From assembly GCA_000513075.1 (NCBI GenBank), contig AZYC01000001.1, positions 11,624 through 75,623 on the forward strand: a DNA stretch of 64,000 nucleotides, written 5' to 3'. The first letter of the stretch is position 1; every line of letters begins with the position of its first letter. The notes below the pieces were generated by a model. It was not told where the DNA came from. It made no database searches and worked only from the letters and a program-made list of their open reading frames with translations. Made by a program: the position numbers and the translations under genes. Positions 8,680-60,070 of the stretch are shown here, one piece after another. The stretch comes from an alpha proteobacterium SCGC AAA288-G21 (GTDB taxonomy: Bacteria > Pseudomonadota > Alphaproteobacteria > Pelagibacterales > Pelagibacteraceae).

Positions 8680-8681
8680 TA

Positions 8682-10110
8682 CTACAACTTTAAAAATAAT
8701 CTTCTTGGTTCTTCTAAATATTCTTTAATACATTTTAGAAAGGAAACTGAATCTTTTCCATCAACAATTCTGTGATCGTAAGACAATGCTAAATACATGA
8801 TGGGTCTTGACATAATTTTACCATCCTTTGAAACTGGTCTTTCAACAATATTGTGCATACCCAAAACACCTGACTGCGGAGGATTCAAAATAGGAGTCGA
8901 AAGCATAGATCCATAAACACCTCCATTACTAATTGTAAAGGTTCCACCTTGCAGATCTTGAATAGCTAGTTTACCCCCCCCTGGCCTTATCAGAAATAAT
9001 ATTAATATTTTTTTCAATGTTCGCGAAAGACATTTCATCTGCATTTCTTAATACGGGGACAACCAATCCTCTATCGGTTCCTACTGCAAAACCTATATTA
9101 TAATAATTTTTATATATAATGTTATTCCCCTTTATTTCAGCATTAATTGCTGGAAAATTTTTCAACCCAACAACACATGCTTTAACAAAAAATGACATAA
9201 AACCCAATTTAACTGAGAAATTTTTTTGGAAATCTTCTTGGTAATCTTTTCTCATCTGAATAATATTATTCATATCAATTTCATTGAATGTTGTTAGTAT
9301 TGCTGCATTTTCTTGAGCTTCCTTTAACCTTTTGGCTATAGTTAATCTAAGTCTAGTCATTTTAATAATTTCCTCAGGTCCATGCTTTATTTTTCTTTCA
9401 GAAGGCTGGGGAGATTGACTCATTAATCCAATTAGATCACCTTTTAAAATTCTTCCATCCTTTCCTGTGCCTTGAACTTTATTCACATCTATTTTTTTTT
9501 CATCCACAATTTTGCGTACCGCGGGTGATAATTCATTTGATAAATTTTTATCTTGAAAGGACTCTTTGTTTTCTGAAATATCTTGATTTAAAATTTCAGG
9601 TTGTTCCTTTTCTTCTTTTATCTGTTGATTTAAAACTAGAGGTTGTTTCATTTCTTCCTTTGCAGGTTGATTTAAAACTAGAGGTTGTTCCATTTCTTCC
9701 TTTACCGGTTGATTCAAAACTAGAAGTTGTTCCTTTTTCTCCTCACTACTACCTGACTCTTTCCTATCAAAAATTGATATATCTTTTTCTTCTTTAATAG
9801 CATCTTGCTTTTTTTTTTGTTCTTTTGATTTAGTAATTGATACAACATTCTCACTTGAGATAACTTCACCATCTTGTGAACTTATTGTTCCAAGTAAAGC
9901 TCCGACTTCGACTGTATCTCCTGTTTTAAAATTAATTTTTGATATTACACCTTCTGCTGGAGATGGTACTTCGACATTAACTTTGTCGGTTTCAAGCTCA
10001 AGGATTGGCTCATCCTCTCTTACTTGATCACCTTGGTTTTTTATCCATTTGGAAATAGTAGCCTCGGTAATGCTTTCTCCGAGAGCTGGCACAATAATGT
10101 TTGCATTCAT
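8682..10110 (-). pseudogene. sucB: 2-oxoglutarate dehydrogenase E2 (dihydrolipoyllysine succinyltransferase), split by a +1 frameshift in a G8 run as sequenced
   Basis: ORF 8971..10110 carries the lipoyl domain (ELETDKV), linker, PSBD and the start of the catalytic domain, ending ..DKARGG*. ORF 8682..9044 continues ..[31 protein letters not shown]. Removing one G from the run at 8974..8981 joins them in frame. Confidence 0.9.
9580..9745 (-). repeat. About 4 degenerate copies of a 42-nt (14-aa) tandem repeat inside the sucB inter-domain linker
   Basis: Peptide units EQLLVLNQPVKEEM / EQPLVLNQPAKEEM / KQPLVLNQQIKEEK / EQPEILNQDISENK. The DNA units gttgatttaaaactagaggttgtt.catttcttccttt... are near-identical. 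Confidence 0.85.
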
Positions 10111-20861: not shown

Positions 20862-21867
20862 TTAATTAATATATTTTTTAATCAAAACAGTTGCAATTTG
20901 CACTGCATTAAGAGCAGCACCTTTAAGTAAATTATCAGAAACAATCCACATATTGATGGAATTTTTTTGTGTCTGGTCTTCTCGTATCCTTGAAATATAG
21001 GTTACAAAATCACCGCTTGATTCAACTGGAGTTATATAGCCACCATCTTCTGTTTTATCTACAACTTTGCATCCAGGAGCTCTTTCTAAACATTCTCTAA
21101 TTTTTTTTGCATCAACCGCAGTATTAAATTCAATATTTACTGACTCAGAGTGTCCAACAAATACTGGAACTCTTACACAAGTAGCACTCAAAGCTATATT
21201 TTGCTCCAAAATTTTTTTTGTTTCTACAGTCATTTTCCATTCTTCTTTTGTGTAACCATCTTCCATAAAAGAATCGATGTGCGGTATAACATTAAAAGCA
21301 ATTTGTTTAGTAAAATTTTTTGAATTTACTTTTTGTTTTTCTAAAACTAATTTGCTCTGTTCTTCAAGTTCATTCATGTGAACTTTACCCGCTCCAGAAA
21401 CAGACTGATAAGTTGATACAATAACTCTTTTAATTTTAAATTGATCATGTAGAGGCTTTAGTACCAGCACTAACTGTATTGTTGAACAATTAGCATTAGC
21501 AATAATATTTTTATTTTTGTAAGATTTTAAAGCTTCGCCGTTAACTTCGGGCACTACCAAAGGAATTTCTTTGTCCATTCTGAAATATTTGGAATTGTCA
21601 ATTACGATAGTTTTTTTTTGCTGCAATGGGAGCCCATTTTTTTGCTATAGCGCTTCCCGCAGAAAAAAAAGCTATTTTTACTTTTGAAAAATCAAAATCA
21701 CTAAGTCCAATGATTGAGTAGGTTTTATTATTAAAAGTAATCTTTTTTCCAACACTTTTATCAGAAGCAATAAGATACAATTCACTAAACTCAAAATTAG
21801 TTCTCTCTAGAACTTCTAAAAGCTTTCTACCGACATTTCCTGTCGCCCCAACAATTGCTATATTCAT
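20862..21867 (-). pseudogene. asd: Aspartate-semialdehyde dehydrogenase, split by a +1 frameshift in an A9 run as sequenced
   Basis: ORF 21598..21867 (MNIAIVGATGNVG...AKKWAPIAAKKNYRN*) and ORF 20862..21626 (..KKTIVIDNSKYFRMDKEIPLVVPEVN.. SGAGK..) are the two halves of Asd. Deleting one T from the run at 21611..21619 gives ..APIAAKKTIVIDNS.. in frame. Confidence 0.9.
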
Positions 21868-21903
21868 ATTAATTAAAGTATTACTATTGTTTTATGACCA
21901 ATT

Positions 21904-38611: not shown

Positions 38612-39958
38612 TTATTTAATTTGGTTAAAAATTTCCGGAGGTATTCCATCTTTAGGATCACCTTTAGACATTTTTTTCATCATATTGGTCATCATTTTAA
38701 ATTGCTTTAGCAATTTATTTATAGTGGCAGAATCCGCTCCTGAACCACTAGAAATTCTTTTTTTTCTTGAAGCATTAATTATTTTTGGATTTAATCTTTC
38801 TTCTTTTGTCATTGATAAGATAATTGCTTCATTGATTTTAATTATATTTTCATCAATGTTTGCATTGTCCATTTGTTTTTTTATTTTGGATACTCCTGGT
38901 AACATTGACAAAACTCCTTCCATTCCTCCCATTTTTTTCATTTGTCTAAGTTGATTTAAATAATCTTCCATAGAAAAAGCGCCTGATCTTAAATTTTCTT
39001 CTGTTTTTTTAATATTTTCTTGATCTAAATCTTGAGAGGCTTTTTCAACAAGAGAAACTATATCTCCCATTCCAAGAATTCTATTTGCTATTCTATCGGG
39101 ATGAAAAACTTCAAAATTTTCAATTTTTTCTCCTACTCCTAAAAATTTTATAGGTACTCCCGTGGTAAATTTCATGCTTACTGCCGCTCCACCTCTTCCG
39201 TCTCCATCAGCTCTAGTTAGTACTATTCCAGTTAAGTCAACAGCTTTTTTAAATTCTGTGGCTATATTTACTGCCACTTGGCCTGTTAGAGAATCAGCCA
39301 CTAATATTACTTCTGAAGGAGTAAGAGTTGATTTTAACTCTTTAATTTCACTCATCATTGAAAGATCAATTTGAGTTCTTCCAGCTGTATCAAAAATAAT
39401 TATATCTGATCCAGACAAAGAAGCTGCTCCTAAAGCTATTCTTGCAATATCGTTTGGTAATTGGTCCTTAACTACAGGTAAAGTTTGTATAGAATTTTGT
39501 TCTCCTAAAATTTTAAGCTGTTCTTGTGCTGCAGGTCGATAAACATCTAAGCTTACCAATAAAGATTTTTTTTTATTATTCTTTTCAAGATATTGAGCTA
39601 ATTTCGCAGCTGTTGTGGTTTTACCCGAACCTTGAAGTCCTACAAGCAAAATAGAAACCGGAGGAACAGCGTTCAAATTTAACTCTGATTTTTTATCTCC
39701 AAGTAATTGAACCAGTTCATCATAAACTATTTTTACAATCATTTGACCGGGAGTAGTGGATCTTACAATTTCCTGGCCGATAGCCTTAGGTTTTATATTT
39801 TCAATTAATTTTTTTGCTACGGGTAAAGCTACATCAGCTTCTAATAAAGCCTGTCTAATACTCCTCAATCCTTCCTCCACTTGTTTTTCATTCAGTGAAG
39901 GAGCTTTTTTTAATGAAGAAAAAATTTCTTCAAATTTATTTGTTAAATTTTCAAACAT
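38612..39958 (-). CDS. ffh: Signal recognition particle protein Ffh
   Basis: The start is set at MFENLTNKF (ATG 39958); the ORF-track extension to 40036 is not Ffh-like. GTPase motifs GLQGSGKTTT and DTAGR, plus a Met-rich M domain. Confidence 0.95.
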   Translation of the reverse strand: MFENLTNKFEEIFSSLKKAPSLNEKQVEEGLRSIRQALLEADVALPVAKKLIENIKPKAIGQEIVRSTTPGQMIVKIVYDELVQLLGDKKSELNLNAVPPVSILLVGLQGSGKTTTAAKLAQYLEKNNKKKSLLVSLDVYRPAAQEQLKILGEQNSIQTLPVVKDQLPNDIARIALGAASLSGSDIIIFDTAGRTQIDLSMMSEIKELKSTLTPSEVILVADSLTGQVAVNIATEFKKAVDLTGIVLTRADGDGRGGAAVSMKFTTGVPIKFLGVGEKIENFEVFHPDRIANRILGMGDIVSLVEKASQDLDQENIKKTEENLRSGAFSMEDYLNQLRQMKKMGGMEGVLSMLPGVSKIKKQMDNANIDENIIKINEAIILSMTKEERLNPKIINASRKKRISSGSGADSATINKLLKQFKMMTNMMKKMSKGDPKDGIPPEIFNQIK

Positions 39959-39986
39959 TTTACAACATCCAACAACAAACGCATTA

Positions 39987-40070
39987 GTGGGCGAACTCTC
40001 GCTGACTAATGTCGATCTCTTTGTTACCAAAGACACCGCAAAGAACTACTATTTTTTGCGGAAGTTCGCC
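39987..40070. other. GC-rich element of about 85 nt that can form multiple helices (candidate structured RNA or regulatory element); strand unresolved
   Basis: Closing helix GGCGAACT (39990-39997) / AGTTCGCC (40063-40070). Internal hairpins are TCTTTG-TTAC-CAAAGA (40018-40033) and CCGCAAA..TTTGCGG (40036-40061). It is much more GC-rich than the flanking spacer. Confidence 0.45.
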
Positions 40071-49230: not shown

Positions 49231-49824
49231 TTAACAAGCAGGAATATCATCCTCATCAATAATCCCATAGGGTTTGAATGAAGTATCTTTAATCTCAGAT
49301 TTAGTCCTAATATTTTTTGCAGGAACCCCAACCATGATAGCATGCTCTGGTACATCACGTGTGACCACAGCATTTGCACCAATTTTAGCAAATTCTCCAA
49401 CTATGATCGGTCCTAAAACTTGTGCTCCAGATCCCACCACAACATTATTTTTTAAGGTTGGATGACGTTTGATTCCTCTTTGTTCACCAGAATTAATACT
49501 AGGCGATATTCCTCCAAGAGTAACAGAGTGATAAAGTGTTACATTATCTTCAATTTTAGAAGTTTCTCCAATTACTACACCCATTCCATGATCGATAAAA
49601 AAGTTTTTTCCTATCTTTGCCGCCGGATGTATTTCTATTCCAGTTAAAAATCTTGAAGATTGAGAAACGATTCTTGCAATTAAAGTAAGTCCGACTTTGG
49701 AAAAAAAATTTGCTATTCGATGAAAAAAAATTGCTTTGACCCCAGGGTAAGTTAGGATAATACCTAGCTTAGATTTAGCCGCAGGATCTCGATCCATAAT
49801 AGATTTTATATACTCGTTCATCAT
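49231..49824 (-). CDS. cysE: Serine O-acetyltransferase (short form)
   Basis: 197 aa. ..DRDPAA.. N-terminus and a hexapeptide-repeat core [38 protein letters not shown]. Confidence 0.92.
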
Positions 49825-50279
49825 ATGTAATTTAACGGAAGATTGCTGGTTTGTTTAATTTCTTCCATGGAAAAACTAGTTGTAACATCTGATAGATCAA
49901 TTTTATCAGTCAGTTTTTTATAAAATGTATCAAATTTGTCTATACTTGGAACTAATACTTTTAAGAGATAATCAGTTGTTCCGCTCAACCGATAAAATTC
50001 TACAACTTCATCCATTTCTTTAACGCCTTCTATAAATTTTTTTGACCATGCCATATTATGTTGACTTGTTCTGATTTGAACAAAAGCCACAGTGGAAAGA
50101 TTTATTTTTGCTCGATCAATAACAGCTACTTTTTTTTTAATGAATCCTTGCTTATATAATTTATTTATTCTTAGCCAACAAGGTGTTGATGATAAATTTA
50201 CCTTTTTTGACAATTCTGCAACGGGTATGTCTGCATTGATTTGCAATAAGGATAAAATTTTCTTATCTATGTCATCCAT
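49821..50279 (-). CDS. lrp: Lrp/AsnC family transcriptional regulator
   Basis: 152 aa. N-terminal HTH ([37 protein letters not shown]) and a C-terminal RAM domain. The stop overlaps the cysE start (ATGATGA). Confidence 0.9.
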
Positions 50280-50402
50280 AATGTTTTATTCTATAATTGT
50301 ATAATAATATAGATTTTTTATCTATAAAATAGTAATATATTGATAATTTTTAACTTATTTTCCTATAAAACTTTACTTTATTAGAATTATATCCTACCAA
50401 TC

Positions 50403-50499
50403 TCATCGAATAGCGCTGATTTAAATCTAATTGCAGGCGCTAAACAAATCTTGCTAAAGCGATGATCTTATTAGGCCACCGCAATAGCCGGTGGTTTTT
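50403..50499 (+). promoter_or_regulatory. Structured 5' leader (riboswitch/attenuator candidate) of the sulfur operon
   Basis: Outer helix TCATCG (50403-08) / CGATGA (50460-65). Inner hairpin AGCGCTG (50412-18) / CAGGCGCT (50434-41). The loop GATTT is complementary to the downstream AAATC, so a pseudoknot is possible. A terminator hairpin follows. A candidate promoter TTGATA-18 nt-TATAAA lies at 50340-50369. Confidence 0.5.
50475..50499 (+). terminator. Intrinsic-terminator-like hairpin inside the leader, about 80 nt upstream of the first start codon
   Basis: CCACCG-caatagc-CGGTGG followed by TTTTT. No plus-strand gene lies upstream that it could terminate. Confidence 0.55.
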
Positions 50500-50579
50500 C
50501 TTGAGGCAACTCAATTTAAACCTAGGTATTTAATTTGTGCACCTGACAATTGTCGAAGCACTAAACAAAAAGGAGAAAA

Positions 50580-51482
50580 ATGAAAAAAATACTAGTAACA
50601 ATCTTTTTCTTTATTTTTAGCTTTACTGTTTTTGCAGCAGAACCATTGGTAGATACAAAATGGTTGAATGATAATTTGAAAAATAAAGAAGTTTTTGTTT
50701 TAGATATTCGAAACAAAATCGATAAAGGTTCTTATGAAACGTTTACACAAGGTCATATTCCAGGCTCCATACATTCCGATTATCTTCAAGACGGATGGAG
50801 AACAAAAGTTGAAGAAATTATCGGACAATTGCCCCCCGTTAAAGATCTTGAACTATTAATCGGTAGTCTTGGAATTGGTAATAAAAATCATGTAATTGTT
50901 GTTTACGGCGGAGTTAGTTCAAGTGATTTTGGCAGTGCCTCAAGAGTCTATTGGACGTTTAAAACTTTGGGCCATGACGAAGTATCCATCTTAAATGGTG
51001 GCTATAAAGCTTGGGAGTCTTCAGGTTTTAAAATTGAAACTGGCGAGCATAATCCGAAACTCGCAAAGTTTATAGCTAACTATACTGACAAGTATTATGC
51101 TAATGCTGACGATGTTATTAAAGTTATCGAGAATACTAACATTGGCTTGATTGATGCCAGACCTGCTGCTTTCTTTGTTGGAGAAAAGAAAAAGAAGCAA
51201 GCTTTAAGAGCAGGAAGAATTAAAAATTCTTTTAACTTAGAGCAACAAACTTTGGTTAACGAAGATGGTACCTTTAAATCGGTAGAGGAAATTAAGATAC
51301 TAATTTCACAAGCGGGTTTGAATGGTAAAGACGGTTACATATCCTACTGTAACACAGGGCACTGGGCTTCCATACCATGGTTTGCTTTAAGTGAAATAGC
51401 TAAAGAACCAAATGTTAAGAACTACGACGGCTCTATGGTTGATTGGACATTTGATCCTAATAGAGAAGTTATAAAAGGATAA
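50580..51482 (+). CDS. Periplasmic two-domain rhodanese (thiosulfate/3-mercaptopyruvate sulfurtransferase family)
   Basis: 300 aa. Signal peptide MKKILVTIFFFIFSFTVFA/AEP and active-site loop YCNTGHWAS in the second domain. A strong AGGAG Shine-Dalgarno precedes it. Confidence 0.88.
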   Translation: MKKILVTIFFFIFSFTVFAAEPLVDTKWLNDNLKNKEVFVLDIRNKIDKGSYETFTQGHIPGSIHSDYLQDGWRTKVEEIIGQLPPVKDLELLIGSLGIGNKNHVIVVYGGVSSSDFGSASRVYWTFKTLGHDEVSILNGGYKAWESSGFKIETGEHNPKLAKFIANYTDKYYANADDVIKVIENTNIGLIDARPAAFFVGEKKKKQALRAGRIKNSFNLEQQTLVNEDGTFKSVEEIKILISQAGLNGKDGYISYCNTGHWASIPWFALSEIAKEPNVKNYDGSMVDWTFDPNREVIKG

Positions 51483-51501
51483 TTTGAGAAATTAGCTATA
51501 G

Positions 51502-51565
51502 TCAGAAAAAGGGGGGGGGACGTATTCCTCGTTATTTTATTAAGTTTTATCTCCTCCTTTTCTGA
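51502..51565 (+). promoter_or_regulatory. Long intercistronic hairpin containing a G9 tract
   Basis: TCAGAAAAAGGGGGGGGG (51502-51519) pairs with TCTCCTCCTTTTCTGA (51550-51565). That gives about 17 pairs including G-U, one bulged A and a loop of about 30 nt. It lies between the rhodanese and yeeE genes. Confidence 0.5.
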
Positions 51566-51592
51566 TCTAAATAAATCATATAACTTTTCAAT

Positions 51593-52759
51593 ATGATACA
51601 AACAAAAAAAATTGATTTTTTCATACTTTCATTTGGTTTAGTCAGTTCGATTTTTTTAGTATGTTTTTTCAAACAGATAATTAATTTCCAACATTCTTTG
51701 ATATTTGTAATAGGTCTGTTGTTAGGACTTACTTTATATCACGCTTCGTTTGGATTTACTGGCGGTTGGAGAAATTTTATAGAACGTTCTGATAGCAGCG
51801 CTCTTAGAGCGCAATTTTTAATGTTGGTATTTGCAATTCTTTTATTTTCAGGATTTGTAAATTCAAAAAGTATATTCTATGGAAATCCAATTGTAGGTTC
51901 TGTGGCTCCCACAAATGTTTCATTAATAATTGGTTCATTTATTTTTGGTTTAGCTATGCAACTTGCAGGTGGATGTGGATCAGGGACACTTTATACAGTG
52001 GGCGGAGGAAATACTAAAATGCTTATTACATTGATATTTTTTATTATTGGCTCTTTAGTTGGAACTTATAATTTTACTTTTTGGATTGAATTACCCACTT
52101 TAGGAAACATATCTTTATTAGATAAATTTGGAATTATTAATTCAATCATAATTCAATTAATCTTTATTGTTTTGTTGTACCTAATTTTTTCATATGTAGA
52201 TAAAAAGAAAAATAATATTGTCGATCATAGCGATATTTTTAAATCTAGTAATTTTAATATTATCAAAGGTTCTTGGCCGTTATTTCTGGGAGCAGTTTTA
52301 TTGGCAATATTAAATTTTTTAATGCTCAATGTTGCTGGACATCCTTGGTCTGTTACTTTTGCCTTTGGGTTATGGGGTGCAAAAATTGCAGATTTTATAG
52401 GAATAAATGTTGCAAGTTGGGATTTTTGGAATTTTCAATATCCAAAAGTAGCGTTAAGAAATAGTATTTTTGCAGACCATACTTCTATATCTAATATTGG
52501 AATAATATTAGGTGCTTTAATTGCATCGGGTTTAGCAGGTTCATTCAATAATAAAAATAGGATCAAAACAAAGATTATTTTTGCCGCAATGCTTGGAGGT
52601 TTTTTTATGGGATTTGGTGCAAGACTTGCATTTGGTTGTAATATTGGGGCCCTTTTTAGTGGTATTGCTTCTGGAAGTTTACATGGTTGGATTTGGTTTC
52701 TATTTGCTTTCATAGGAACTTATTTTGGGGTGAAATTAAGAAGGTTATTTTATACATGA
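51593..52759 (+). CDS. yeeE: YeeE/YedE (TsuA-like) sulfur-compound/thiosulfate transporter family protein
   Basis: 388 aa, polytopic. Two conserved Cys loops, QLAGGCGSGTLY and LAFGCNIGALF, typical of the Sulf_transp family. Confidence 0.85.
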   Translation: MIQTKKIDFFILSFGLVSSIFLVCFFKQIINFQHSLIFVIGLLLGLTLYHASFGFTGGWRNFIERSDSSALRAQFLMLVFAILLFSGFVNSKSIFYGNPIVGSVAPTNVSLIIGSFIFGLAMQLAGGCGSGTLYTVGGGNTKMLITLIFFIIGSLVGTYNFTFWIELPTLGNISLLDKFGIINSIIIQLIFIVLLYLIFSYVDKKKNNIVDHSDIFKSSNFNIIKGSWPLFLGAVLLAILNFLMLNVAGHPWSVTFAFGLWGAKIADFIGINVASWDFWNFQYPKVALRNSIFADHTSISNIGIILGALIASGLAGSFNNKNRIKTKIIFAAMLGGFFMGFGARLAFGCNIGALFSGIASGSLHGWIWFLFAFIGTYFGVKLRRLFYT

Positions 52760-52935
52760 AATCACTAATATTTATTTTGATTTTTTGTTTTTTTATTTTT
52801 CTTGGATATTTAGATCACACCAAATATGGTATTGTTTATAATCCCTTTGCCCATCACAGTTTAAAATTAGATAAAAATAAAAGTGGAAAAAAACAGATTT
52901 TTAGTGCACCCTGTTCAGAATTTGGTGGAGGATAA
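52756..52935 (+). CDS. Small hydrophobic-N-terminus protein of 59 aa ending ..APCSEFGGG
   Basis: The ATG overlaps the yeeE stop (ATGA). N-terminal signal/TM-like MKSLIFILIFCFFIFLGYL, a single C-terminal Cys and a Gly-Gly-Gly terminus. Coding status is inferred from coupling only. Confidence 0.4.
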   Translation: MKSLIFILIFCFFIFLGYLDHTKYGIVYNPFAHHSLKLDKNKSGKKQIFSAPCSEFGGG

Positions 52936-52948
52936 GTAACTCTTAAAA

Positions 52949-53332
52949 ATGATTAAACAAATACCCAGTAAAGAAATAAAGGAATATCTAAAAAAGAATC
53001 CTAAATGTATATTGCTAGATGTAAGGACAAAAGAAGAATGGGACACAATTGGTAAACCCGACGGAGAGAAAATAGGATTAAAAACCTATTTTTTGTCAAT
53101 ACAAATTGGTGAAGAAAGAATTTTTAATGAAAATTTTATACAGGAATTTAAAAATTTAAACATTGGTCAAGATCATGAAATCTTGAACATGTGTAGATCG
53201 GGTGGCAGATCTCAAGTAGTGGCCGAATTACTAACTAAAGAGAATTATACTTGCTCAAATATTTCCGACGGTTTTGAAGGCAATCAAGAAAATGTTGGCT
53301 GGAAAAATTGTGATTTGCCATGTCAAAAATAG
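52949..53332 (+). CDS. Cytoplasmic single-domain rhodanese
   Basis: 127 aa. ..ILLDVRTKEEW.. and active-site loop MCRSGGRS. Confidence 0.88.
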   Translation: MIKQIPSKEIKEYLKKNPKCILLDVRTKEEWDTIGKPDGEKIGLKTYFLSIQIGEERIFNENFIQEFKNLNIGQDHEILNMCRSGGRSQVVAELLTKENYTCSNISDGFEGNQENVGWKNCDLPCQK

Positions 53333-54504
53333 ATCTGAAAGGTAAAAATTCTAAATTAATTCATGGGGCTTTAAATAAAACGCATTTTAGGGAACAATCA
53401 GAAAGTCTCTTTTTGACTTCTGGATTCGTATATCAGAGCGCTGAACAAGCGGAAGCAATTTTTAAAGGAGATGAAACGGGATTTCAGTATACACGATATG
53501 CCAACCCAACAATTGATACATTTGAAAAAAGAATGGCGCTAATAGATGGTTCGGAAAGTTGTTTTGCTACAGCAAGCGGAATGGCTGCAGTTTTTGGTTC
53601 TATGATGTGTCAACTACAAGCTGGGGACCATGTTGTATCAGCCACCGCTTTATTTGGATCCTGCAGGGAGATTATAAAAAATATAATTACAAGATATGGA
53701 ATAAAAGTATCTTTTGTTGATGGAAAAAATATAAAAAGTTGGGAAAAAGAGATTAAATCTAATACGAAAATTTTCTTTTTTGAAACTCCATCCAATCCTT
53801 GTTTAGAACTAGTTGATATGGAAGCTGTATGTAAACTAGCAAAAAAAAATAATATAAAAGTGATCGTTGATAATATTTTGGTATCACCCGTTTTGCAAAA
53901 CCCATCAAAGTTTGGAGCAGATATTATTGTATATTCGGGCACCAAACATATTGATGGTCAAGGAAGAACAATGGGAGGAGCAATTTTAAGTTCAGAAAAA
54001 TTTAGGGAAGAAATCCTAAAGCCTTTTCTAAGACATACGGGTCCATGTATTAGTCCATTCAATGCTTGGGTTTTATCAAAAGGACTAGAAACAGTTCATC
54101 TAAGAGTGGTTGAACAATCAAAAACTACTGAAAAAATGGTGGAATTTTTATCTGAACATAACAAAGTTGACTCTGTGAATTATCCATTTAAAAAAAATCA
54201 TGCACAATATGAACTTGCAAAAAAACAGCAGAAGATGGGAGGAAATGTTTTAAGTTTTTATATCAAAGGCGAAAAAAAAGAGGCGTTTAATTTTTTAAAT
54301 AATCTAAAAATGATTGATATTTGTAATAATTTGGGAGATACAAAATCTTTAGCCATTCATCCAGCAACCACAACACACAGGATTTTAACCGATGAAGAAA
54401 GAAGTGATCAAAACATTTGTGATAATTTAGTTAGGCTCTCCGTTGGATTAGAGGATTTTGAAGATATTAAAAACGATTTAGATCAAGCATTAAGCTCCAT
54501 ATAA
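53320..54504 (+). CDS. metZ: O-succinylhomoserine sulfhydrylase (Cys/Met-metabolism PLP enzyme)
   Basis: 394 aa. ..TRYANPTIDTFEKRMALIDGSE.. and PLP-lysine motif YSGTKHIDGQGR. The start overlaps the rhodanese 3' end by 13 nt. Confidence 0.88.
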   Translation: MSKIDLKGKNSKLIHGALNKTHFREQSESLFLTSGFVYQSAEQAEAIFKGDETGFQYTRYANPTIDTFEKRMALIDGSESCFATASGMAAVFGSMMCQLQAGDHVVSATALFGSCREIIKNIITRYGIKVSFVDGKNIKSWEKEIKSNTKIFFFETPSNPCLELVDMEAVCKLAKKNNIKVIVDNILVSPVLQNPSKFGADIIVYSGTKHIDGQGRTMGGAILSSEKFREEILKPFLRHTGPCISPFNAWVLSKGLETVHLRVVEQSKTTEKMVEFLSEHNKVDSVNYPFKKNHAQYELAKKQQKMGGNVLSFYIKGEKKEAFNFLNNLKMIDICNNLGDTKSLAIHPATTTHRILTDEERSDQNICDNLVRLSVGLEDFEDIKNDLDQALSSI

Positions 54505-58790: not shown

Positions 58791-60070
58791 TAAATACTCC
58801 TGTACATTTTACCAGGATTAAATATCCCTTTAGGATCAAAACTTTCTTTAATTTTTTTTGATATATGTAATCTTGTCTTATTAATTGTAAAAATATCTTT
58901 TAGTGGAACAGAATTTTCAGAACTTTTAATAACGGTAAGATAACCACCTAGTCTTATAATATAGTCTTTAATATTTAATAACTTTTCTTCATTCATATCT
59001 GATATTTCAATCCAAAATAAAGAACCACACCAATCAATATAATATTTATAATCACTGTTTAAATATCTCATTAAATCAATACACTTGAAAGGAGGTATGA
59101 CAATTCTTACCAGGCTATTTTGAGTATTTGAAAATATTTCAAGATTATTGATTCTTTCCCAAAACAACAATGATTGGTGAACATCTAAAAGAGATTTTTT
59201 TTTATTTTTAAGATCCAGTTCAATTGTTAAATCTCGAATTCTTTCATCAATTGATTTTTTTGATCCTTCCATTCTTAACGCCAAAAAAGGTCCCTCATTT
59301 TTAAGATCATTAAATCTGAATATTTTTTCACGATTTTGAATATATTTTTTATTATTTGGTTCAATTGGCACAAATACCGAACCTGATATCTCATTACTAG
59401 AACTTTGAATGTTATTAAATAATTTTGCTATTTCTTCTTTACTATCTTCATGTATTACTAATGTGCTACTAGAATCCTTTGTTGGAAGAACTTTAAAAGT
59501 GATCTCTGTTAATGCAACAAGCGTCCCGAAAGATCCTGTAATTAATTTGGAAAGATCATAACCTGTAACATTTTTTACGACTGTTCCACCTGACTTTATT
59601 GTGTCTCCTTTCCCATTAACTCCCCTAAATCCTAAAACGTGATCTCTAACACTTCCTGATTTAAACCTTCTTGAACCTGAAAAATTACATGAAAGACATC
59701 CGGCGGCTGTACCTTTATTGCTTTTCGAAGAACTAATATATCCAAAATTAATTGGTTCAAAAGATAGTTGTTGATTATTTTTTTTTAAAACTTCTTCAAT
59801 GTTTGCTATAGGAGTACAAGCCTTTACTTTTATATAAAGTTCTTCAGGTAAATATTCAATGATTCCAGACAATTTTGAAAGATCTAGTATTTTCGCACAT
59901 TGCAATTTATTACCTATAAAACTTTTTGAGTTCGAGCCTATGATTTCAGTTGGAAGATTTTTTTTATAAAGATCTTTTATAATTTGAGAGACTTTTTCTT
60001 CATTATCAGGCTTTAATATATAATCAGAATCTTGGGAGATCTGGGAATTTTTCCTCACCTCTACGGACAT
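58790..60070 (-). CDS. glcE: Glycolate oxidase FAD-binding subunit
   Basis: FAD-binding PCMH-type sequence. ATG 60070 is preceded by AGGAAGGA; the ORF-track GTG is at 60091. Either start overlaps the glcD 3' end. Confidence 0.85.
   Translation of the reverse strand: MSVEVRKNSQISQDSDYILKPDNEEKVSQIIKDLYKKNLPTEIIGSNSKSFIGNKLQCAKILDLSKLSGIIEYLPEELYIKVKACTPIANIEEVLKKNNQQLSFEPINFGYISSSKSNKGTAAGCLSCNFSGSRRFKSGSVRDHVLGFRGVNGKGDTIKSGGTVVKNVTGYDLSKLITGSFGTLVALTEITFKVLPTKDSSSTLVIHEDSKEEIAKLFNNIQSSSNEISGSVFVPIEPNNKKYIQNREKIFRFNDLKNEGPFLALRMEGSKKSIDERIRDLTIELDLKNKKKSLLDVHQSLLFWERINNLEIFSNTQNSLVRIVIPPFKCIDLMRYLNSDYKYYIDWCGSLFWIEISDMNEEKLLNIKDYIIRLGGYLTVIKSSENSVPLKDIFTINKTRLHISKKIKESFDPKGIFNPGKMYRSI

Follow-up and report, generated by a model that had tools for sequence, protein, structure and literature searches.

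A tandem of two S-adenosylmethionine (SAM) riboswitch aptamers, SAM-II and SAM-V, is said to stand before the bhmT gene of 'Candidatus Pelagibacter ubique', reportedly described by Poiata et al. 2009, RNA 15:2046. Here we analyse the 300-nt spacer 50280-50579 in a 64-kb stretch of DNA from the Pelagibacteraceae genome SCGC AAA288-G21 (64,000 nucleotides; hereafter the window, to which all coordinates refer). The spacer is the leader of an operon encoding a rhodanese, a YeeE-type transporter, a second rhodanese and MetZ. Very probably, it forms a tandem SAM-II/SAM-V SAM riboswitch of the type known from SAR11, with a transcriptional and a translational tier. Unless stated otherwise, all elements lie on the plus strand.

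A 261-nt SAM-II/SAM-V spacer is listed in Table 1 of Meyer et al. 2009 (PMC2704228). In the tandem, SAM-II acts on transcription and SAM-V on translation, and sulfur limitation leads to higher expression of the genes behind these riboswitches (PMC5069961). Feng et al. 2024 probed the bhmT tandem, which contains a linker hairpin before a poly-U run. The linker blocks the response of SAM-II to SAM, and anti-linker oligonucleotides restore it (PMC11508383). In the solved metY SAM-V structure (PDB 6FZ0), the bulged U of helix P2 pairs with the adenine of SAM; further contacts are made by the two to three A's that follow, by the U-U at the start of P2 and by the U run of the third strand. This structure superimposes closely on SAM-II (PMC6061858), for which the metX structure is that of Gilbert et al. 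2008, as cited in PMC6061858. In 86% of SAM-V members two bases of loop L1 form a 2-bp helix, P2a, with the start of the Shine-Dalgarno sequence (PMC6061858). In SAM-II, P2a comprises 5 bp and is G+C-rich in most members, with 2 bp in metX. For SAM-II and SAM-V alike, a preference for SAM over SAH has been published.

The window shares with the bhmT tandem the succession of SAM-II, a hairpin with a poly-U run and SAM-V at the ribosome site, as well as an AT-rich lineage of ~1 Mb genomes and the theme of methionine and sulfur genes. Its linker pairs with the SAM-II tail, fitting the published 'linker-mediated inactivation'. It differs from the bhmT tandem in fronting genes for rhodanese, YeeE, rhodanese and MetZ, and in its shorter SAM-V L1, displaced ribosome site and weaker putative antiterminator. 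The riboswitch architecture is known; the gene context and the shortened SAM-V loop appear to be new. In the literature searched, which did not extend to the metagenomic examples of Poiata et al., no paper names both SAM-V and rhodanese. A preliminary description of this DNA had suggested a variant or a new class of riboswitch, which is not supported, as the published SAM-II/SAM-V architecture is matched.

SAM-V and SAM-II aptamers in the leader

At its curated thresholds, Rfam returns nothing in 50280-50579. When 50200-50650 was scanned permissively, SAM-V (RF01826) came out as the strongest Rfam match of the spacer. It covers 50515-50578 over the full model (positions 1-66) with 34.3 bits and an E-value of 7e-4, and ends at the Shine-Dalgarno sequence of the first rhodanese gene. 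The preliminary description had recognised a single structured aptamer. This is the SAM-II; the SAM-V was overlooked.

As in the metY SAM-V (PMC6061858), the sequence can be arranged as an H-type pseudoknot. P1 pairs AGGU (50524-50527) with ACCU (50541-50544), and L1, AUUUAAU (50528-50534), provides the AUUU third strand. P2 pairs UUGUGC (50535-50540) with GCAC-U-AA (50558-50564), where U50562 is the single bulged base and is followed by a run of A's. P3 is a hairpin of GACA (50545-50548) and UGUC (50551-50554). It coincides with a perfect 10-bp palindrome, GACAATTGTC (50545-50554), whose GTGC/GCAC flanks place it inside P2. Downstream lies the Shine-Dalgarno sequence AAGGAG (50570-50575), with the ATG at 50580. 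According to the Rfam alignment, the SAM-contacting bases are kept: the bulged U50562, A50563-50565, U50535-50536 and U50529-50531. The base preceding P2 is U50534 here and A in the structure; C, G and A all occur at this position among orthologs above the Rfam threshold.

Related leaders support the assignment. Scanning metagenomes with the rhodanese protein gave 26 loci, most of which bear the same leader. Those with a full-length L1 score 54.6, 53.0, 50.7, 49.3, 49.1, 47.2 and 43 bits for SAM-V at the same position (threshold 41 bits), and they precede orthologous rhodanese genes (77-95% protein identity). The nearest relatives share a 5-nt deletion in L1 with the window and score 32-38 bits. 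The genome itself carries one further SAM-V copy elsewhere (46.8 bits). Across 14 sequences, P2 is paired in 100% of cases, with C-G replaced by U-A in two separate subgroups (L048, L050), and P3 likewise in 100%, with G-C replaced by A-U. RNAalifold recovered both helices unprompted. All four P1 pairs are present in 14/14 sequences, the outer pair as A-U, G-U or G-C and the inner pair as U-A, U-G or C-G. These P1 pairs were counted by script, as MAFFT displaces the window row by one column at this point and makes its alignment counts unreliable.

The SAM-II aptamer occupies 50410-50462. The Rfam models match it weakly, RF00521 (SAM-II) with 17.1 bits and RF01726 (SAM-II long loop) with 18.3 bits, both on 50403-50474. 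RF00521 finds a match in 91/101 genomes of the family and reaches its threshold of 36 bits in 0/101, the best score being 30.8 bits. As a check of the downstream genes revealed, these matches stand before metX-like, homocysteine S-methyltransferase and metF genes, in agreement with the SAM-II sites published before metX and bhmT of 'Ca. Pelagibacter ubique' (PMC2704228, PMC5069961). The shortfall is a limit of the Rfam model in this lineage, not a structural feature. A covariance model (R1) was derived from 21 SAM-II aptamers that SAR11 genomes carry elsewhere, with none from the rhodanese operon. It matches 50410-50462 with 54.6 bits (E 1.3e-12, model positions 1-52), while its runner-up in the window reaches 17.1 bits (E 0.018). 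This runner-up covers only the GCUAAAG part of the motif and lies at 38686-38758 on the minus strand, where RF00521 also matches weakly (20.1 bits); the site falls within the apparent end of a coding region and was taken as chance. Outside the window, the same genome has a SAM-II aptamer with a terminator before a metX-like gene (G000:C1:4714-4788, minus strand; RF00521 22.3 bits).

The window SAM-II has the expected parts of RF00521/RF01726: P1 formed by AGCGCU (50412-50417) and GGCGCU (50436-50441), loop L1 (50418-50435) with GAUUU and its U run at 50420-50422, the pseudoknot helix P2 of UUGC (50431-50434) with GC-U-AA (50453-50457; U50455 bulged), and an A-rich joining strand. It differs from these families in scoring far under threshold, as do all copies in the family, and in lacking a long G+C-rich P2a: only AUC (50426-28) with GAU (50461-63) is possible, two to three pairs at most, of which two are kept in most relatives.

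In 15 related leaders from several genera, P1 is paired in 100% of cells. One pair is changed on both sides; the variants include A-U, G-U and G-C at one pair and U-G, U-A and C-G at another. The inner helix of the preliminary description, AGCGCU/GGCGCU, is this P1 and is borne out. UUGC, GC-U-AA and GAUUU are invariant across the 15 leaders, which is consistent with the pseudoknot and does not prove it by covariation. The pairing of GAUUU with AAAUC, earlier proposed as a pseudoknot, is indeed a complementarity that is kept (95.7%). It is nearly invariant, with no double-sided change at any pair, and even when slid by one column it stays 74-77% paired, a U run facing an A run, such that it is not distinguishable as a helix. 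In the solved SAM-V, the helix is UUGC/GC(U)AA and the U run serves as third strand (PMC6061858), which speaks against GAUUU/AAAUC as the pseudoknot helix. The outer helix of the same proposal, UCAUCG (50403-50408) with CGAUGA (50460-50465), is present and part of the minimum free energy (MFE) fold, but it is poorly kept: 60.7% of its cells are paired in the relatives and only AUC/GAU persists. Its AUC (50405-07) is an alternative partner for GAU 50461-63 of P2a. The expectation that helices would covary or be conserved in orthologous spacers held for SAM-II P1, for SAM-V P1, P2 and P3 and for the tail-linker helix described below, and not for the outer helix. The fold of the whole leader has a z-score of only -1.61, and our case is built on comparative data, not on folding energy.

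Terminator and tail-linker helix

The three elements follow one another as SAM-II (50410-50462), terminator (50474-50499) and SAM-V (50515-50578). The intrinsic terminator consists of GGCCACCG, the loop CAAUAGC, the 3' arm CGGUGG and U5 at 50495-50499; its arms are CCACCG (50476-50481) and CGGUGG (50489-50494), and its energy is -11.2 kcal/mol. A terminator scan found this one site in the region, where shuffles gave 0.2 expected sites. The earlier observation of a GC-rich hairpin with T5 and no upstream plus-strand gene that it could terminate is thereby confirmed. A terminator is the expression platform of most SAM-II riboswitches. Nine of the 15 leaders possess it, with every core pair retained.

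The 3' tail of SAM-II, CUUGCUAAAGCG (50450-50461), is complementary to CGCAAUAGCCGG (50480-50491) in the linker, a strand which overlaps the end of the terminator 5' arm, the loop and the start of the 3' arm. This tail-linker helix covaries. Over the 15 leaders 87.8% of its cells are paired, against 31-47% in slid controls, and three pairs are changed on both sides (for example, AAAG/CUUU to AAAA/UUUU). Its covariation score was reached by 0/500 shuffles, and RNAalifold predicts the helix unprompted. In growing transcripts that end at 50488-50494 the helix is part of the MFE fold; in the equilibrium fold at full length the terminator supplants it. Judged from this sequence comparison, the tail-linker helix may be an antiterminator. 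The energies of its counterparts in the other leaders range from -8.0 to -15.4 kcal/mol.

Six leaders (L046, L050, which is the same as L054 and L068, L057, L058, L065 and L067) have lost the 5' arm of the terminator, and some of these are also without a clean U run. Their SAM-II aptamer is intact and the tail-linker hairpin is stronger and covarying, with -8.6 to -18.5 kcal/mol. Folding of these six leaders with the aptamer constrained closed revealed no substitute terminator for the lost CCACCG arm; the freed linker is predicted to pair beside SAM-V P1.

A small hairpin, UUGAG-GCAA-CUCAA (50501-50514), separates the terminator from SAM-V and is found in both the MFE and the centroid fold. 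Read by eye, related leaders have a hairpin at the same position with other sequences (AUGAG..CUCAU, GAUG..CAUC, UUUUAG..CUAAAA). It may insulate the folding of SAM-II and SAM-V from each other. GGUUU (50493-97) could pair with AAACC (50518-22), lengthening this hairpin, and would then compete with the terminator 3' arm in read-through transcripts. In terminator-less relatives, a long stem is built from the corresponding U-rich and A-rich stretches.

Switching model and alternative explanations

The sequence data establish which two aptamers are present, the terminator, the covarying tail-linker helix and the gene context. That SAM is bound, which way the switch works and how much each tier truly contributes are inferences, and we picture the process as follows. 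During transcription, the SAM-II aptamer (50410-50462) would be either bound by SAM or unbound. With SAM, its 3' tail GCUAAAG would be locked in the pseudoknot and triple helix, the hairpin 50474-50494 would form and transcription would terminate at 50495-50499. Without SAM, the free tail would pair with 50480-50491, taking bases from both terminator arms, and the polymerase would read through. In read-through transcripts, SAM-V (50515-50565) would bind SAM, by analogy to the solved SAM-V. By stabilising the P2 triple helix immediately before the Shine-Dalgarno sequence (50570-75), SAM would reduce initiation at the ATG at 50580. The linker block and its rescue by oligonucleotides in the bhmT tandem (PMC11508383) are what the tail-linker helix predicts. 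We tentatively go one step further, at slightly less than even confidence: the tail-linker helix would be the antiterminator of the tandem as well as the structural cause of the 'linker inactivation' of SAM-II, and the leader would be a kinetic two-tier switch of a short-L1 sub-type serving a thiosulfate/sulfane sulfur operon.

Several observations weigh against the two-tier tandem. On the side of SAM-V, 34.3 bits lies under the threshold of 41. L1 has 7 nt instead of ~12 and, owing to the 5-nt deletion, is without the two bases of the P2a helix, so that the canonical hiding of the ribosome site by P2a is not available in the window. Four extra bases stand between P2 and the Shine-Dalgarno sequence; AAGGAG starts 5 nt past the last A (50570 versus 50565), and occlusion of the ribosome site is therefore less direct. 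P2a belongs to the expression platform, not to the aptamer fold. On the side of SAM-II, the scores of RF00521 and RF01726 miss their thresholds of 36 and 44 bits, and the terminator is absent from 6/15 related leaders although the aptamer is retained. The antiterminator of the window is the weakest of the set, at -6.6 kcal/mol versus -11.2 kcal/mol for the terminator, and the transcriptional tier may therefore lean to constant termination. In vitro, SAM-II did not respond to SAM within the full-length bhmT tandem (PMC11508383).

Alternatively, only SAM-V would be a working switch, and SAM-II with its hairpin would either attenuate at a constant level or be a remnant in decay, no longer responsive to SAM. 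The weak antiterminator with a terminator that wins at equilibrium, the loss of the terminator in six relatives, the two relatives that carry SAM-V alone (L049, L056) and the SAM-insensitive SAM-II of the full-length bhmT tandem in vitro (PMC11508383) all fit such a scenario. We nevertheless consider it unlikely: the SAM-II aptamer core is invariant in 15/15 leaders and the tail-linker helix covaries, whereas decay would be the expected fate of a non-functional element in so AT-rich and streamlined a genome. Moreover, insensitivity at equilibrium is what one expects of a transcriptional switch under kinetic control. A different ligand (SAH, methionine, thiosulfate or cysteine) or a new riboswitch class could be invoked on the grounds that both Rfam scores fall under threshold and that the operon concerns inorganic or sulfane sulfur rather than methyl transfer. 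This is very improbable, as the window retains the SAM-contacting bases by alignment to the SAM-V consensus (PMC6061858), ortholog leaders exceed the SAM-V threshold and the lineage SAM-II model gives an E-value of 1e-12. The preliminary description had expected a ligand-sensing leader with a pseudoknotted aptamer of SAM-II/SAM-V type, which is borne out; SAH or another sulfur metabolite, which it also considered, found no support.

Control by a protein or a leader peptide is just as hard to credit. The perfect 10-bp palindrome GACAATTGTC could be read as a repressor operator, a divergent Lrp/AsnC regulator adjoins the spacer, and short open reading frames (ORFs) of 23-30 amino acids within it could suggest attenuation. 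Yet the palindrome is SAM-V P3 and varies as an RNA helix does, being GACAUUAAGUC, GACACUUGGUC or AAC..GUU, changed on both sides, in relatives. The short ORFs have neither a ribosome site nor runs of Met or Cys, and the U-tract, which ranges from 5 to 9 in length among relatives, would break their frames; leader-peptide attenuation was rejected on these grounds. An Lrp-type operator in the AT-rich half (50280-50400) would be compatible with the riboswitch and is no alternative to it.

Operon, related loci and implications

The spacer is bounded on its 5' side by the divergent Lrp/AsnC gene (49821-50279, minus strand; Pfam). On the other side, the controlled operon (50580-54504) comprises a two-domain rhodanese (50580-51482), a YeeE/YedE-type sulfur transporter (51593-52759), a small rhodanese (52949-53332) and MetZ, an O-succinylhomoserine sulfhydrylase (53320-54504), all assigned with Pfam and NCBIfam. 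MetZ exceeds the cut-off of TIGR01325 (515.2 versus 510.05 bits), and the rhodanese and YeeE matches fall under the equivalog cut-offs of NCBIfam. The leader does, as first proposed, front a sulfur and methionine operon.

In a greedy ORF map, the median intergenic gap of the window is 16 nt. Larger or similar apparent gaps at 58791-60023, 8680-8970 and 21627-21903 are occupied by ORFs of 433, 120 and 89 amino acids, which leaves 50280-50579 as the window's largest spacer without coding sequence; the claim that it was the largest spacer stands in this form. The window has a G+C content of ~31%. A candidate promoter, TTGATA-18 nt-TATAAA, can be read at 50340-50369, exactly where it had been placed. 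It was not called in a consensus scan, which demands T as the last base of the second hexamer. The neighbouring block, TTAACTTATTTT.CTATAAA...TTAGAAT (~50350-50395), recurs in orthologous spacers of other genera, even with a different leader RNA. From its sequence, the block may comprise both the promoter and an operator at which the divergent Lrp/AsnC regulator acts. A comparison with phage records gave no similarity.

Within the window, a single Rfam match exceeds its threshold: the ffh sRNA motif (RF01793) at 39974-40026 on the minus strand (55.4 bits), which probably accounts for a G+C-rich element between ffh and dapF. This motif was first described in 'Ca. Pelagibacter ubique'.

By coordinate matching, at least 10 of the 101 family genomes have a SAM-II match 32-40 nt upstream of a SAM-V match on the same strand. 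The tandem architecture is therefore common in the family, while the operon behind it differs here. The two Rfam matches of the window are 41 nt apart, just beyond the range in these 10 other genomes. Near-identical tandem leaders occur in two genomes of other genera (L075, L090); their SAM-V scores are 69.3 bits in front of a MetE-like gene and 64.8 bits in front of metF. In one other genus (G037:C1:694449-696966; L019, L090), the tandem lies ~1.4 kb downstream of the rhodanese ortholog, before a MetE-like gene, with a second structured stretch and a second AGGAG between SAM-V and the start codon; the rhodanese gene there follows a peroxiredoxin-like gene and has no leader.

Two metagenome relatives carry SAM-V alone before the rhodanese gene (L049:176-240 and L056:1185-1246). 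Upstream of it, L049 has a peroxiredoxin-like gene, and L056 a gene for a Cys/Met pyridoxal-phosphate enzyme with a terminator behind it. SAM-II and SAM-V seem to be shuffled independently as modules. No homologous leader, and no SAM-V according to Rfam, accompanies the rhodanese orthologs (47-57% identity) of other genera in the family. In g17 and at some g12 loci, only a short gap separates the gene from a peroxiredoxin-like gene upstream; at the other g12 loci the spacer contains a different hairpin. A rhodanese search of genome contigs returned only 30%-identical proteins from unrelated phyla.

At loci of another genus (L024:1390-1500, L026, L028 and L023, together with the reverse-strand loci L025 and L029), the rhodanese ortholog is preceded by the same promoter block and divergent Lrp gene. 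The leader RNA there is a different long hairpin of ~70-80 nt; two of its three types fold with z-scores of -4.5 to -4.9. The stems vary between the types, the apical loop contains CCUCC or CCCUC, and Rfam gives no match at E<=1. The same operon may thus have another regulatory RNA in these loci.

Taken together, the leader marks out the rhodanese-YeeE-rhodanese-MetZ operon as belonging to the SAM regulon. This supports the view that, in a SAR11-type genome, the operon leads sulfur from an external reduced or sulfane source into homocysteine and methionine. Nothing here alters the accepted understanding of how these riboswitches function. RF00521 is blind across the family (0/101 genomes at threshold) and the SAM-V threshold misses the short-loop subgroup, hence annotation pipelines leave such leaders blank. 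The comparative data also offer a simple candidate structural reason for the silencing of SAM-II by the linker in the tandem. The SAR11-type lineage is known for the absence of assimilatory sulfate reduction. If the kinetic two-tier reading is true, uptake and use of thiosulfate and sulfane sulfur would be under SAM control in the sub-type to which the window belongs, in a lineage without assimilatory sulfate reduction.

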